A stretch of DNA of 47,161 nt, from positions 1 to 47,161 of IMG/VR virus record IMGVR_UViG_3300046060_000019; one strand, given 5' to 3'. Each line of letters opens with the position of its first letter. The first letter of the stretch is position 1. The notes beneath the pieces are model-generated. The model was given only the letters and a program-made list of their open reading frames with translations, was not told the DNA's origin and searched no databases. Source of the stretch: a virus. Made by a program: the position numbers and the translations under genes. Below are positions 5,178-33,504 of this stretch, in pieces.

Positions 5178-5511
5178 TTCGACCACCCAGCCGACCGTCG
5201 TCACTGAACAGCGCCGTTACCACTTCGCTGGGCGGGGCGACTTCCGCCCGTTTCCAGACGTAATACGCCCCTGTCGCTTCCAGCGTGACGAACAGGATAA
5301 TCGCCCAGATTTTCAGTGTCGCTATCGCGGCTTCACTGGGGTTCCACGCCGCCGAGAACACCATTATCAGGGCTGACCCAGCCACGAACAGCGCCGTGAC
5401 GTGTCCGGGGTGACAGCGTCGCGGATTGATTAACTGAAGGTACACGGCGGCGAATACGCCGAACATCCCAGCGAACGTACCGAACCAGTCAATCATTGTC
5501 GTCAGTTCCAT
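5170..5511 (-). CDS. Membrane protein (about 108-113 aa, 3-4 TM segments)
   Basis: Hydrophobic throughout (FGTFAGMFGVFAAVYLQLI..., IWAIILFVTLEATGAYYVW). An alternative start at 5496 gives an ATGATTGA overlap. Confidence 0.6.
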   Translation of the reverse strand: MELTTMIDWFGTFAGMFGVFAAVYLQLINPRRCHPGHVTALFVAGSALIMVFSAAWNPSEAAIATLKIWAIILFVTLEATGAYYVWKRAEVAPPSEVVTALFSDDGRLGGRNG

Positions 5512-20189: not shown

Positions 20190-20822
20190 TCAGACTTCAC
20201 CATTTTCGTCGCCTTCCCACATGGCGTTCGCGCCGTCGGGGACGCCACCGCCGCCACCGGACGACGAAGGCCCGCCACTGATACCCTCGTACTTCAGTCC
20301 CAGCCGGACTTCTTTGGATACACTGTCCAGCGCATCCAGCGTCCCCACCTTCGGCTTTTCCACCATACAACGGTCCATGGCTTCGCCGGGGTCCATTCCC
20401 TGTTCTATCAGTTCTTCAGGGTCCCGTATCTGTTCTTCATAGAACACGCCGTCTTTCAGTAGGTGTTCCTGAAGTTCGTCGCGGATTACGGCGAGCGACG
20501 CTAACGCGGCGGCTTCAGACTTGTTCTCGGCTTTCCCGTGGTATTCGACGTAATAGTCTTCAAACAGCCCCAGATACGGTTCGCCCAGTTCCTTGAACCA
20601 TTCCAGACGCCGCTTTACGGACATGTGAAGCCCGGTGTCCACGGCGTTGAAGTTCCCTTCCGACGCCCCGCGCCCGTCGGGTTCGTCGTCGGGGCCGTCG
20701 GGCTGGTGGGACTTCAGCCAACACCGCCCGTTCTCGCCGTGCTTTGCGTGGGTGGGGTTCTGACAGGGACCGTTCGCCCCCTCGTACCCACAGTTGTCGG
20801 CGTCACCAGTGTTGTCAGGCAT
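20190..20822 (-). CDS. Terminase small subunit-like protein
   Basis: GNFNAVDTGLH resembles the GN.NA.KHG motif seen in many small terminases. The track ORF was trimmed to the ATG at 20822 (MPDNTGD), exactly 35 nt after a class A motif. Confidence 0.45.
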   Translation of the reverse strand: MPDNTGDADNCGYEGANGPCQNPTHAKHGENGRCWLKSHQPDGPDDEPDGRGASEGNFNAVDTGLHMSVKRRLEWFKELGEPYLGLFEDYYVEYHGKAENKSEAAALASLAVIRDELQEHLLKDGVFYEEQIRDPEELIEQGMDPGEAMDRCMVEKPKVGTLDALDSVSKEVRLGLKYEGISGGPSSSGGGGGVPDGANAMWEGDENGEV

Positions 20823-20857
20823 GTCAGACACTCGTATGCTGAACGACTTATCCCACC

Positions 20858-20868
20858 GTGACGCTGGA
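20858..20868 (-). promoter_or_regulatory. Class A promoter-proximal motif
   Basis: gtgacgctgga, followed on the minus strand by GGTGGGATAAGT. A 35-nt spacer leads to the ATG at 20822. Confidence 0.6.
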
Positions 20869-21209
20869 AGGTGGACGCCCCGCCCGGAACGCGCCGACGG
20901 CGACGGTGAACGAGCGAACAGCCACGTTGGACAGTCCGAATTTGTTTCCTGACACTCGGGACCGACCCCCGCCGGGTAGCGCGTCGCCACGGAATAGCCG
21001 GTTTGTGGGCGTGTCGCTGGGCGTCGTTGGTGAAAGTAGGAAAAGGCCCCGCCGGGCGTGTTATTCCCGGTGGGGCGTGGTCACGAAGGGTCCGTGACGG
21101 GACGGTGGGGGACACCCGTGGTCGCCTTCCCACCCACTCGGTCCATGGTGGACCTATCGGCTTTTAGCCGATATGCGGGGTCACCAGACTTCCACGGCGT
21201 TACGTCCCA

Positions 21210-21325
21210 TGCGCCCGTCGGGAATTGAACCCGGTTAGGCCACCTTCCCACGGTCCAGACAGCACGCGACGGCTTCCCCATGGGTCACCGTCCGCTTATC
21301 TGGGCCGCGTTCGGTCCACGGGCGC
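21210..21325 (-). ncRNA. tRNA-like RNA, 116 nt
   Basis: The 5' GCGCCCG pairs perfectly with the 3' CGGGCGC. A T-arm CCGGG-TTCAATT-CCCGA precedes the 3' strand, with discriminator A. I could not fold the D and anticodon parts into a cloverleaf. Confidence 0.4.
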
Positions 21326-21429
21326 TGGTAAAAGGTGGGGGTAGTGGGGGATAGATGTTCGGGACGTGTCCCGTGACGCGGGCCGGTCCTCGTATCGCCA
21401 CGGTCGCCGCGTCAGCGCCGTGGACCGGA

Positions 21430-21593
21430 AGCCGCCGGACGGACTTGAACCGTCGGACATGCCTACATGTCGGCGGAGTGGGCAGGGCCGCCGGGCCGTC
21501 TATCGGCGTCAGGTCCCGGCGTCAGCCCGTGGGGTCGTCCTACCCAGACGACAACGACGTTCGTGTTCGACAGGCTGGATTCCAGACAGCGGC
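21430..21593 (-). ncRNA. tRNA-like RNA, 164 nt
   Basis: The 5' GCCGCTG pairs with the 3' CGGCGGC (one G-U). The T-arm GACGG-TTCAAGT-CCGTC is perfect. Internal hairpins are GTCGTC-TGGGTAG-GACGAC and GACATG-TAGG-CATGTC. Confidence 0.4.
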
Positions 21594-21738
21594 CATGCTG
21601 TCGGTCGTCAGGCCGGTGTTACGAGCGGGGGTCACCCCAGTTCGGCCCGCTGGGGTGGGCTATTCCCGTGGTGATAATCAACTGGTGGTCGTCCATGCGG
21701 TACGTGACTGGTTACCACTCGGGAACTATTGAACGACC

Positions 21739-21749
21739 GTGACGCTGGA
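21739..21749 (-). promoter_or_regulatory. Class A promoter-proximal motif
   Basis: gtgacgctgga lies 5 nt after the stop at 21754. It is followed by GGTCGTTCAATAG and only a 25-codon ORF (21696..21619) before the non-coding region. Confidence 0.55.
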
Positions 21750-21753
21750 AGTT

Positions 21754-21921
21754 TCAGTGGTGGTGACGGACGGCGATTCCAACCAGTACGACCACGGCCA
21801 CGACGCCCAGTACCGTCAGGGCGTTCCGTGCGGCCCACTGGACGGCTAAGATTACGCCGCCTATCCAGACGGCCACCAGTACCAACAGCGCCACCAGCGT
21901 GGCGTCCAGTACGTCAGACAT
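21754..21921 (-). CDS. Small membrane protein (55 aa)
   Basis: MSDVLDATLVALLVLVAVWIGGVILAVQWAARNALTVLGVVAVVVLVGIAVRHHH, with an ATGTCTGA overlap with the upstream stop. It is below the track cut-off. Confidence 0.5.
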   Translation of the reverse strand: MSDVLDATLVALLVLVAVWIGGVILAVQWAARNALTVLGVVAVVVLVGIAVRHHH

Positions 21922-31040: not shown

Positions 31041-32507
31041 TCAGGTGTCCCCCCCGTTGACGGCGTCCAGAATCGCTTCGTTCAGTTCGTCCCCGCTGGG
31101 CTGGGCGGACACTGTCGCGTCCACGTCAGCGGCCAACGCTTTCCGCTCGTTGTAATCTGACGGTAGGGCGTCGGCGTCCAGTTCGTTCAGCGTGTCGGCG
31201 TCCACCACGTCGCCCCAGTCGTGGGGAAGAACGTCGTCCACGGGCGTGGCGGCTTCCACGTCGCGCCCGTCTTTGTCGCTGGGGACGACCGTCGCGGCGT
31301 CGTCCGGGTCGCTGTCGGCGGGGTCCACCGCCGCCGCTTCCAGACGCTCTATCAGGTCAGCCCGGTTAGGGTTGCCGTCCACGGAAACGTCGGACGCTTC
31401 CGCCAACGAGTGAAGGGCGGTCGTATCCAGTTCTTGAAGCCGTTCCACACGGCTGTCGTTAGCGCCGTCATACGGCGCGTCAGTGGATTCTTCGTCGTCC
31501 GTGGACGCTGGGTCGTACCCGTCGGCGTCGGCGGCCACGTCGCCCACGCTTCCGCCGTGGCCGGGCGTCAGGGTTTCAGCGACTTCGGTTAGGGCGTCGG
31601 TCGTCTTCCGGGCTATCTCGGGGTCGTTTAGCGACCCGTCGAAGTCGTCCAGCCGGTCGTCCACTTCGTCTTCGGGGACGGGTTCGCCCACGTCCACTAT
31701 GTCCAGTTGCCCGGTGTCTTCGTACTGTCGCGCCCACTTCGGAATGTCGTCGTCCGACGGGGCGGTCCAGACGACCCGCGTCAGGTACGAGTACCCGATA
31801 ACGCCGGGGACCGTCTTTACCGGTTTGTCGGCGTCGTCTTCGCCCAGCCGGTTGTCGTCGTCCATGTAGTTGACACGGACGTTCTCGGTCTTGGCGTCGC
31901 CGTCGTCGTCGGTGACGGCCACCTGTTCGCCGTCGTCCTCGGTGGTCACCGGCTGTTCGTACACCCGGAACGCCGTCGGGTGAATCAGGAACACCCGCGT
32001 GTTCATGGGGTTGATAGCGGGCGGCCCCTGTCGCTTCGACACCGGGATTCCCTTCGACAGCCCGAACCGCTGGGATTCCGTGACGAAGTCTTCCGGGTCG
32101 TCGTAGTACGTTTCCCCGACCCACATTAGTAGGTCCTCGGCGTATGCCGTGGTGATAGCGCCCCAGTGGTTCCCGTCTTCGGAGCCGTCCAGCCGGTCCC
32201 ATAGGTCCTGAAGGTCGTCTTCGTTCGGCTGGGTCGTTACGTCGTCACCCAGCGACCGCTGGAACCCCAGTCCGTCGAACTGTTGGTACGAGCGAAGCGT
32301 TCCTTCTTTGTAGGGAATCGGCGGGTCGAACGTCACGAAGGCGGGAATGTCGCCGCCACGGACGGGGTCAGTTCGGATGTACCCTTTTTCTTCTTCCAGA
32401 TAGCCACACCCGCGTTCTGGGTTGGGTAGTAGTTCCCGCCCAGTCTCGGGGTCGGCTTTCGGTTCGTAATCCAGTTGGTCGCCAAAGTTCGGGTTTTGTT
32501 CGGTCAT
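31041..32507 (-). CDS. Large early-region protein of unknown function (488 aa) with a hyper-acidic C-terminal half
   Basis: Track ORF trimmed to the ATG at 32507 (MTEQNPNFGD...). The N-terminal globular part contains RGCGYLEEEKGYIR and FDPPIPYKEG. I saw no Walker motif. Confidence 0.6.
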   Translation of the reverse strand: MTEQNPNFGDQLDYEPKADPETGRELLPNPERGCGYLEEEKGYIRTDPVRGGDIPAFVTFDPPIPYKEGTLRSYQQFDGLGFQRSLGDDVTTQPNEDDLQDLWDRLDGSEDGNHWGAITTAYAEDLLMWVGETYYDDPEDFVTESQRFGLSKGIPVSKRQGPPAINPMNTRVFLIHPTAFRVYEQPVTTEDDGEQVAVTDDDGDAKTENVRVNYMDDDNRLGEDDADKPVKTVPGVIGYSYLTRVVWTAPSDDDIPKWARQYEDTGQLDIVDVGEPVPEDEVDDRLDDFDGSLNDPEIARKTTDALTEVAETLTPGHGGSVGDVAADADGYDPASTDDEESTDAPYDGANDSRVERLQELDTTALHSLAEASDVSVDGNPNRADLIERLEAAAVDPADSDPDDAATVVPSDKDGRDVEAATPVDDVLPHDWGDVVDADTLNELDADALPSDYNERKALAADVDATVSAQPSGDELNEAILDAVNGGDT

Positions 32508-32824: not shown

Positions 32825-32936
32825 GGGTCACCGCCGTCACGCGGACGCCCCGTCGGGCGTATTCTTCGGCTTTGTTGCTATCTGTCGTCTGAAACCGTCG
32901 TTCTGAGCTGTAAACCCGGTAGGTCGTTCTCGCCAT
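32817..32936 (-). CDS. Small basic protein (39 aa)
   Basis: MARTTYRVYSSERRFQTTDSNKAEEYARRGVRVTAVTHA. It is preceded by a class B leader. Confidence 0.35.
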   Translation of the reverse strand: MARTTYRVYSSERRFQTTDSNKAEEYARRGVRVTAVTHA

Positions 32937-32940
32937 AGTT

Positions 32941-32995
32941 CTGTCAGGCAACACCGTTTACACCCGGCGTCGAGGTGACCGCCCCGTCACTGAAC
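32941..32995 (-). promoter_or_regulatory. Class B conserved leader (GTGACGGGGCGGT box plus ACGCCG...CGGTGT hairpin)
   Basis: The minus strand reads GTGACGGGGCGGTCACCTCGACGCCGGGTGTAAACGGTGTTGCCTGACAGAACT then ATG. Confidence 0.55.
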
Positions 32996-33026
32996 AAGAG
33001 CTGTTCAGGGACGGTGTGACGGAAAA

Positions 33027-33200
33027 CGGACAGGGCGGGATTTGAACCCGCGAAGCGACTTCCCCGGCGCTTCCGAAGGACACAAGGACAGTGTTGTCCC
33101 GGCGGGGGTGTCCGCCGGTCCCTCGTACCACGTCCCCGGTTCCGCCGCCAAAGCCCGTTGATGAAAACGGGCCGCCTTGTCCAGACTCGGCCACCTGTCC
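33027..33200 (-). tRNA. Oversized tRNA-like gene (174 nt), possibly an intron-containing class II tRNA
   Basis: Acceptor GGACAGG/CCTGTCC (7 bp, perfect). D-arm GCC-GAGTCTGGACAA-GGC. T-arm GCGGG-TTCAAAT-CCCGC. Discriminator G followed by TTTT. About 90 extra nt carry internal hairpins. Confidence 0.5.
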
Positions 33201-33228
33201 ACGGTGAAACGAACAGCGGCGTTGGCCG

Positions 33229-33504
33229 CTATTCGTCTTCGTCGTCGCGCTCGGGAATCACCATGTCGGTGTCGTCGGCGTCAGGTGGCGGCTGTTCGTC
33301 CTTCAGGTCGTCGTAATCCTTTCGGTGGCGGTCCCGCTCGTACTCGGCTATGTCCACGGCGTCGGCGTCGCCCATAGGACAGTCGGCTTCGTGGTCGTCC
33401 TCGTTGGCTATCAGCCGGTCGCACTCGGGACACGACGGCGGGTCCGGTTCGTTCCATGGGGCGTTCGGGTCGCCGGGACCCGTCCCCGGTGGGTATCCGC
33501 CCAT
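33229..33504 (-). CDS. Acidic zinc-binding protein (91 aa)
   Basis: CPECD...HEADCP. Confidence 0.55.
   Translation of the reverse strand: MGGYPPGTGPGDPNAPWNEPDPPSCPECDRLIANEDDHEADCPMGDADAVDIAEYERDRHRKDYDDLKDEQPPPDADDTDMVIPERDDEDE

Follow-up and report, generated by a model that had tools for sequence, protein, structure and literature searches.

Class II tRNAs (tRNA-Ser and tRNA-Leu; Rfam family RF00005) carry an extra arm between the anticodon stem and the T-stem, which in natural molecules is roughly 13-25 nt long. Haloarchaeal tRNA-Trp has an intron of about 100 nt that contains a C/D-box guide. tmRNA combines tRNA-like ends with a large structured interior, and to our knowledge SmpB is absent from archaea. 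A few viruses, as well as long non-coding RNAs of mammals, provide known cases of non-decoding RNAs with a tRNA shape–for example, the mascRNA of MALAT1, the tRNA-miRNA RNAs of murine gammaherpesvirus 68, and stable RNAs C and D of phage T4. Such modules borrow RNase P and tRNase Z; MALAT1 and NEAT1 are treated in PMC12941219. In halovirus HF2, a low-scoring tRNA-like gene (HrrHF2_450) was read as attP; its sequence corresponds to the 3' portion of a tRNA gene of the host, and it adjoins an integrase gene (PMC8707807).

Here we analyze a tRNA-like gene in a viral DNA of 47,161 nt from a salt-lake community (IMG/VR record IMGVR_UViG_3300046060_000019; the whole stretch is called the window below). 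Like class II tRNAs, the element has a 7-bp acceptor stem, U8, a canonical T-arm, G18G19, a 3-bp D-stem with flanks of the G13/A22 type, and an extra arm between the anticodon stem and the T-stem; its discriminator is G, as in tRNA-Ser. Unlike them, its extra arm is 96 nt long and branched, its anticodon loop has 8-10 nt instead of 7, and it is rejected by ARAGORN in default mode. With the mascRNA, gammaherpesvirus 68 and T4 modules it would share a non-decoding tRNA shape that borrows RNase P and tRNase Z and, as in the viral examples, a location among or beside genuine tRNA genes. The functional RNA of those modules lies beside the tRNA-like unit, whereas the candidate functional part here is embedded at the variable loop. 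In the literature that we searched, no account turned up of a conserved cloverleaf with a variable loop enlarged to a three-way-junction domain of 96 nt.

An earlier note on this DNA had recognized, by eye, perfect terminal pairing of GGACAGG with CCTGTCC on the minus strand, a TG resembling U8/G9, a D-arm of class II style, a T-arm, a discriminator G and a TTTT run. All of these are present (Table 1); the TTTT run is not kept in homologues. Up to the 96-nt insert the element reads GGACAGG-TG-GCC-GAGTCTGGACAA-GGC-G-GCCCG-TTTTCATCAA-CGGGC-TTT, and from there on it reads (96 nt)-TC-GCGGG-TTCAAAT-CCCGC-CCTGTCC-G, followed by TTTT. Nucleotides for the tertiary contacts of tRNA are found at U8, A14, G18G19, G15/C48, G53-C61 and, in the T-loop, T54/A58.

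Table 1. Features of the tRNA-like gene and its flanks (window positions)
Feature	Position	Strand	Basis or remark
Whole tRNA-shaped RNA gene, 174 nt, G1 to discriminator G	33027..33200	-	sequence, Rfam, covariance model R1
Acceptor stem, 5' strand GGACAGG	33194..33200	-	pairs with CCTGTCC 33034-33028, perfect 7 bp
TG at positions 8-9, right after acceptor 5' strand		-	sequence
D-arm, class II style, GCC-GAGTCTGGACAA-GGC, 3-bp stem, 12-nt loop with A14 and G18G19	33174..33191	-	
Anticodon-arm equivalent, stem GCCCG/CGGGC, 10-nt loop TTTTCATCAA	33153..33172	-	
96-nt branched arm at variable-loop position	33054..33149	-	independent folds and covariation
Hairpin A, CGGCGG-ACACCC-CCGCCG	33100..33117	-	alignments; most conserved motif of the arm
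Hairpin B, GGACA-ACAC-TGTCC	33086..33099	-	compensatory changes in 4/5 pairs
T-arm GCGGG-TTCAAAT-CCCGC	33035..33051	-	sequence
Acceptor 3' strand CCTGTCC and discriminator G (33027); CCA not encoded	33027..33034	-	
TTTT run after discriminator	33026-33023	-	
Inverted repeat CCGTCAC...GTGACGG, directly 3' of RNA gene	32974..33022	-	kept in L004, L005, L008, L009, L011
attP-like core GCGACGACGAAGACGAATAG, end of 91-aa ORF, 28 nt upstream of RNA gene	33229..33248	-	matches host GCGACGACACCGACGAATAG

The earlier note had proposed an Infernal scan and an ARAGORN search as checks. In the first, limited to positions 32900-33330 (431 nt), the Rfam tRNA model (RF00005), whose gathering score is 29, reached 34.6 bits (E = 1e-5); the match spans the element from end to end, with the anticodon arm left unpaired in the Rfam alignment. 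A gathering-threshold Rfam search of the whole window reported no family, and the second check came out against a standard tRNA: ARAGORN in default mode found none anywhere in the window. We also scanned for a 5-bp T-stem with a TTCRANN loop and G53/C61, a 7-bp acceptor stem within 230 nt, and T8. This strict scan found 2 sites in the window, compared to a mean of 0.007 in 300 first-order Markov random sequences. The tRNA-like element at 33200-33027 (minus strand) is confirmed as real and not a chance match. The strength of the case rests on comparison with homologues, because the z-score of its minimum free energy is only -2.6.

By searching a large protein collection we found 26 relatives of the 488-aa protein whose gene lies downstream of the element. 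Six homologues of the element (171-174 nt) occur in related contigs from hypersaline metagenomes, all of them adjoining the same 488-aa gene: five copies of 172-174 nt at the same position in contigs L004, L005, L006, L008 and L009 (80-98% identity), and a more distant sixth copy of 171 nt in L011. This gives seven sequences in total, from about four lineages. The element is dispensable, because a close relative (L053; 69% protein identity) lacks the entire intergenic cassette. In distant IMG/VR relatives, the neighborhood of the homologous gene contains either ordinary genes for tRNA-Gln and tRNA-Leu or no more than a remnant of a T-arm. Four DNA pattern scans of IMG/VR returned just ordinary tRNAs, tandem tRNA pairs or nothing, and two protein-based scans of IMG/VR returned only such distant relatives. 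A motif scan of 185,579 species genomes and JGI metagenomes gave no further members and only two chance matches; with an empty host site that lacks the element, this led us to reject an origin from a host gene.

We built a covariance model (R1) from six of the sequences and then used it to align L011. R1 gives 208 bits for the window element, 174-209 bits for five homologues, and 49 bits (E about 1e-8) for L011; it also matches tRNA-Leu(UAA) genes of distant viral relatives at 26-32 bits. In a ten-helix consensus, 95.4% of cells are paired and 23 of the 53 pairs have changes on both sides, as counted in seven sequences on an alignment fitted to R1 itself. None of 500 shuffles reached the observed values of pairing and covariation, and when each 3' partner was slid by 1-3 columns as a control, at most 6 pairs had changes on both sides (compared to 23). 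With just MAFFT and RNAalifold, 8 pairs were already compensatory. Each of the ten helices has support in the R1 alignment.

One refutation named in the earlier note was that covariance models and RNA-seq show the terminal pairing to be unused; covariance upholds this pairing, as 100% of acceptor-stem cells are paired and three of the seven pairs are compensatory. The discriminator, which is unpaired, is G in 7/7 sequences. The D-arm is invariant in the window-type sequences, save for the GG lost from the D-loop of L005, which is the sole exception to the retention of the D- and T-arm tertiary nucleotides expected of a decoding tRNA (U8, A14, G18G19, G53-C61 and TTCRANY). A C-G pair of the T-arm is replaced by T-A in L008 and L009, and covariation is seen in four of the five pairs of the anticodon-type stem. 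In L011 the arm layout is unchanged, although the acceptor and anticodon stems differ and the D-stem has 4 bp. The homologues differ by indels of 1-2 nt, and the ORFs that overlap the element are arginine-rich and have their frames broken by these indels, so we rejected protein coding.

The roughly 90 extra internal nucleotides remarked on in the earlier note correspond to the 96-nt arm, a conserved structural domain that covaries. Both RNAalifold, run on six sequences, and separate energy folds of the window element and of its homologues in L008, L009 and L011 place it as the variable region of a cloverleaf, and the four separate folds agree on the architecture. From base to tip, the arm consists of the helix GGCGGC/GTCGCT, a GGAA/GGAA internal loop, the helices CCGG/CCGG and CGT/GCG, a purine-rich internal loop, an 8-bp helix CGAGGGAC/GTCCTTCG, and two terminal hairpins. 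Helices 4-9, which belong to the arm, are 88-98% paired and have compensatory changes in 13 pairs. The hairpin-A motif, GGCGG-AMACMC-CC(G/T)(C/T)C, is present in 7/7 sequences, even in L011 with its different tRNA body. All four interior hairpins listed in the earlier note exist, and three of them are backed by covariation among homologues. The fourth, GAAGCG/CGCTTC, can pair in every homologue but never varies, and it is mutually exclusive with the basal helix GGCGGC/GTCGCT, which is preferred by every independent energy fold and has one compensatory change.

No other Rfam family is recognizable in the arm (best E = 0.09, with all matches far under their thresholds). We rejected pairing of hairpin A with the GGGTGT of the downstream leader, a match that is lost in L008 without compensation, and also mimicry of a CRISPR repeat, for which local alignment to a Haloferax I-B repeat was not significant.

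In a decoding tRNA, the anticodon stem would have 5 bp and its loop 7 nt, among them U33 and purine 37. Four sequences instead have the 10-nt anticodon-type loop TTTTCATCAA; the loops of L008 and L009 are GTAATCAC and CAAATCAC, with 8 nt each, and L011 has the 9-nt loop ACCCATGAG, where 7 nt is reached only if an A-G pair closes the loop. AT(C/G)A is the only part common to these loops; U33 and purine 37 are not conserved. The earlier note had been unable to place a standard 7-nt loop by eye. Because its anticodon loop is of the wrong size, and of variable size, the element should not read codons. We then removed every segment of 1-124 nt, one at a time, and rescanned the products with ARAGORN. 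The commonest calls were a four-base anticodon tcat in the window type, aatc or a two-base at in L008 and L009, and Met(cat) in L011 only; no single excision gives a canonical anticodon shared by all homologues.

We estimate a probability of roughly 55% that the element is a virus-encoded, non-decoding RNA derived from a class II tRNA, with the arm as its functional part. In this it fits the second half of the earlier note's dual reading, an intron-bearing viral tRNA or a tRNA mimic, since the acceptor stem, D-arm, T-arm and elbow nucleotides are kept without a standard anticodon loop. The element retains the parts of the tRNA L-shape (7-bp acceptor stem, discriminator, D/T elbow contacts and canonical T-loop), and because these ends and the elbow are kept, it would most likely be cut from a longer transcript by the RNase P and tRNase Z of the host, with CCA then added by the CCA-adding enzyme. 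The source transcript could begin in the upstream viral genes or, in an integrated provirus, in the host rps19e-rpl39e operon. The anticodon loop should be unable to read a codon, and the variable loop has grown into the conserved three-way-junction arm. Displayed on a stable tRNA body, the arm would probably be the working part, and its action could consist in binding or titrating a partner, either a protein or a nucleic acid.

We consider three other readings–a charged mimic, an intron, and a role at the DNA level in attachment–as minority alternatives to a non-decoding RNA. The best of them, although improbable, is that the element is an aminoacylatable tRNA mimic, most likely for serine, whose charged form acts in or on translation, for example through its expanded anticodon loop or by occupying SerRS or an elongation factor. 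The D-arm GGCCGAG...AAGGC is of class II type, the extra arm is at the class II position, and ARAGORN can be brought to a four-base 'anticodon' by shortening the arm. Against this, the arm is branched and exceeds natural extra arms in length about fivefold, and the sequence and length of the loop are not conserved (tcat, aatc, at and cat). We know of no tRNA that decodes with a 9- or 10-nt anticodon loop. For serine identity, the variable arm and G73 count most and the anticodon does not matter, and G30-C40 is another determinant (PMC9976931); the element has G73 and an extra arm, but its pair 30-40 is C30-G40. With this determinant missing, charging is only a possibility.

Slightly less probable is a pre-tRNA with one or more non-canonical introns, from which a splicing endonuclease of broad specificity, belonging to a DPANN-type host, would make a decoding tRNA. 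The element is similar in length to the intron-bearing pre-tRNAs of haloarchaea, and it shares with archaeal pre-tRNAs that have bulge-helix-bulge (BHB) introns a structured internal segment and a halophile setting. The probable host is Nanohaloarchaeota-like, and endonucleases of broad specificity are reported elsewhere in its superphylum, namely the (alpha-beta)2 type in Nanoarchaeum and the epsilon2 type in Micrarchaeum (PMC5829648). For HGTV-1, one intron-bearing viral tRNA has been reported (PMC13532342). In intron mode, ARAGORN calls Glu(ttc) with a 94-nt intron in four of our sequences, and shortening the arm of L011 yields tRNA-Met(cat). However, the same mode calls Asp(atc) in L009 and nothing in L008 and L011, so that the calls disagree; the arm is a structured domain with covariation; and excising it still leaves loops of 8-10 nt in the window type. 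The insert is at the variable loop and not at 37/38, its removal gives no canonical tRNA, and C or D boxes are absent. The earlier note saw no BHB intron by eye, and a loose BHB scan of the seven sequences agrees, as no motif is common to L008, L011 and the window type. At its base, the arm combines an internal loop of 4x4 with a 3-nt bulge located on the same strand side, which is not BHB geometry. No consistent intron solution, canonical or non-canonical, came out of the ARAGORN intron mode, the loose BHB scan and the deletion scan, and the intron half of the dual reading is not supported.

A tmRNA, which the tRNA-like ends and large structured interior might suggest, was rejected because the ARAGORN tmRNA search was negative and the third acceptor pair is A3-U70 and not G3-U70; unlike tmRNA, the element keeps its D-stem and anticodon stem, and on reading the sequence we found no tag reading frame with a stop inside the domain.

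All the genes in the window are on the minus strand, and they include those for a large terminase, a Mu-F-like protein, a tail tube protein, a PCNA (about 32% identical to the PCNAs of phiH and PhiCh1) and a PadR regulator. No nucleotide match to the window was found in a phage collection. The RNA gene lies between a 91-aa ORF (33229-33504) and the conserved inverted repeat, which we infer to be a terminator or an operator. Past this repeat come a TAAAC box, a 39-aa ORF (32936-32817), a 102-aa ORF and the 488-aa ORF (31041-32507).

Several features of this neighborhood are worth recording in their own right. The 39-aa ORF (MARTTYRVYSSERRFQTTDSNKAEEYARRGVRVTAVTHA; minus strand) is conserved in L004, L005, L008 and L053 and falls under the usual ORF cut-offs; the TAAAC box is about 24 nt upstream of its ATG, and its stop codon overlaps the start of the next gene. 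The inverted repeat contains CGTCAC motifs, and a repeated TTCCAGCGTCACGGT motif flanks a non-coding stretch at 20.8-21.8 kb (at about 21755 and about 20870, minus strand); both the repeat and the TTCCAGCGTCACGGT motifs may be operators or terminators. The 488-aa protein (minus strand) is conserved in HRTV-25 (gp77), HHTV-1 (gp52) and many uncultured relatives, and the genes for these relatives are always near tRNA or tRNA-like genes. It has no match in Pfam, in PHROGs, in a PDB sequence search, or in a Foldseek search with its AlphaFold model. That model has a mean pLDDT of 68, and its N-terminal 290 residues, mostly at pLDDT 80-94, match no fold in the PDB.

One of the related contigs, L004, appears to join the virus to a host chromosome. 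It contains rps19e, a PF01984 gene and a 57-aa gene, and then switches to the viral sequence that precedes the RNA gene. We read the 57-aa gene as rpl39e from its sequence and position, without a family match; the switch occurs directly after its stop codon. The first 1093 nt of L004 are 99.5% identical to contig L054, which represents an empty site: there, rpl31e begins 12 nt after rpl39e, with no tRNA-like gene between them. The host sequence GCGACGACACCGACGAATAG lies at the end of rpl39e, and the core common to host and virus at the crossover is GCGACGAC-NNN-GACGAATAG (L004 1073-1093; L054 5826-5846; window 33229-33248). Because host DNA switches to viral DNA at a core in common with the empty site, L004 seems to capture the left junction between a provirus and its Nanohaloarchaeota-like host. 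The nearest named relatives of its S19e protein are from Candidatus Nanohaloarchaea (65% identity); most of the matches are unnamed, and there are no Halobacteria among the named ones. The haloarchaeal setting assumed in the earlier note thus needs adjusting for the host, as this contig joins the virus to a Nanohaloarchaeota-like chromosome. The RNA gene of L004 starts 28 nt into the provirus and points the same way as the host operon. These sequences suggest that the virus is temperate and tailed, has a Nanohaloarchaeota-like host, and integrates within an operon for ribosomal proteins.

The start of the gene is 28 nt from the crossover, and this favors a role at the DNA level, in which the segment would belong to an integration module or to the arm of attP, or would be a tRNA gene in decay that was captured close to the attachment site. 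The absence of the entire cassette from L053 would also fit, as would the precedent of HF2, another virus of halophilic archaea with a low-scoring tRNA-like gene near a recombination site. We nevertheless consider this reading unlikely, to about the same degree as the intron. The crossover falls on GACGAATAGC, within the 3' end of the host gene rpl39e, upstream of the tRNA-like gene and not inside it, and the empty host site has no such gene, whereas the HF2 element matches a host tRNA gene. HF2 has an adjacent integrase gene, but we recognized no integrase among 18 window proteins (those around the RNA and the larger of the 51 ORFs; Pfam or PHROGs) or in the fold search with the 488-aa protein. 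Compensatory changes in all ten helices indicate selection on RNA pairing, and the nucleotides for tRNA tertiary contacts are retained. The RNA has no significant complementarity to either att site, and a bridge-RNA-like pairing with attP/attB was rejected, as the longest matches were 6 nt and not above those of shuffled sequences.

We also noticed other tRNA-like genes, in the window and elsewhere. An ORF-free stretch of the window (20822-21770) encodes two more RNAs with tRNA-like ends, one of 164 nt (21593-21430, minus strand) and one of 116 nt (21325-21210, minus strand). Both have a 7-8-bp acceptor stem and a canonical T-arm, with no standard anticodon arm, and both are missed by ARAGORN in default mode. 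The 164-nt RNA has a CGGCGG...CCGCCG hairpin followed by a second hairpin, resembling the tip of the large arm, and the 116-nt RNA has a fold z-score of -4.25. Directly 3' of the homologues in L004 (1297-1410) and L009 (2888-2999) is a second tRNA-like gene of about 112 nt, absent from the window; it consists of an acceptor stem in which one pair is compensatory, two hairpins (one long, one small) and a T-arm, and its fold z-score is -3.9. The cultured virus HRTV-25 (Halorubrum tailed virus 25) has an unannotated 105-nt tRNA-like gene of class II type (L014 7403-7507, which is MZ334521.1 45899-46003; 25 bits with R1) and a 70-nt tRNA-Tyr(gta)-like gene (L014 7212-7281, which is MZ334521.1 46125-46194); the opposite strands of these genes are annotated as the hypothetical CDSs gp68 and gp69. 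In L042 (IMGVR_UViG_3300028304_000060), a 172-nt RNA with tRNA-like ends (5257-5428) comes directly after genes for tRNA-Gln(ttg) and tRNA-Leu(taa), an arrangement that suggests shared processing of the tRNA type. Its acceptor stem is CGGGAAA/TTTCCCG, its T-arm is CGCGG-TTCGAAT-CCGCG and its discriminator is G, and its interior is unrelated to the arm described here. Two low-GC IMG/VR contigs have a 122-nt Leu-like tRNA with about 40 extra internal bases (L058 6495-6616 and L062 444-565, both minus strand); it is unrelated to the element family and may be an intron-bearing phage tRNA.

A broader proposal, to which we give little weight, is that viruses of halophilic (nano)archaea use tRNA bodies as natural scaffolds that carry functional RNA domains, and that in lysogens the RNA would be transcribed from the host rps19e-rpl39e operon, matured as a tRNA and possibly charged, and would act on translation, tRNA surveillance or viral immunity. 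The element family occurs in viruses that apparently integrate into a Nanohaloarchaeota-like host, a group for which very few viruses have been characterized. The presence of similar unannotated elements in the cultured virus HRTV-25 makes the idea testable at the bench. A class of viral RNA genes escapes the standard tRNA finders and may be hidden under spurious ORFs in annotations.
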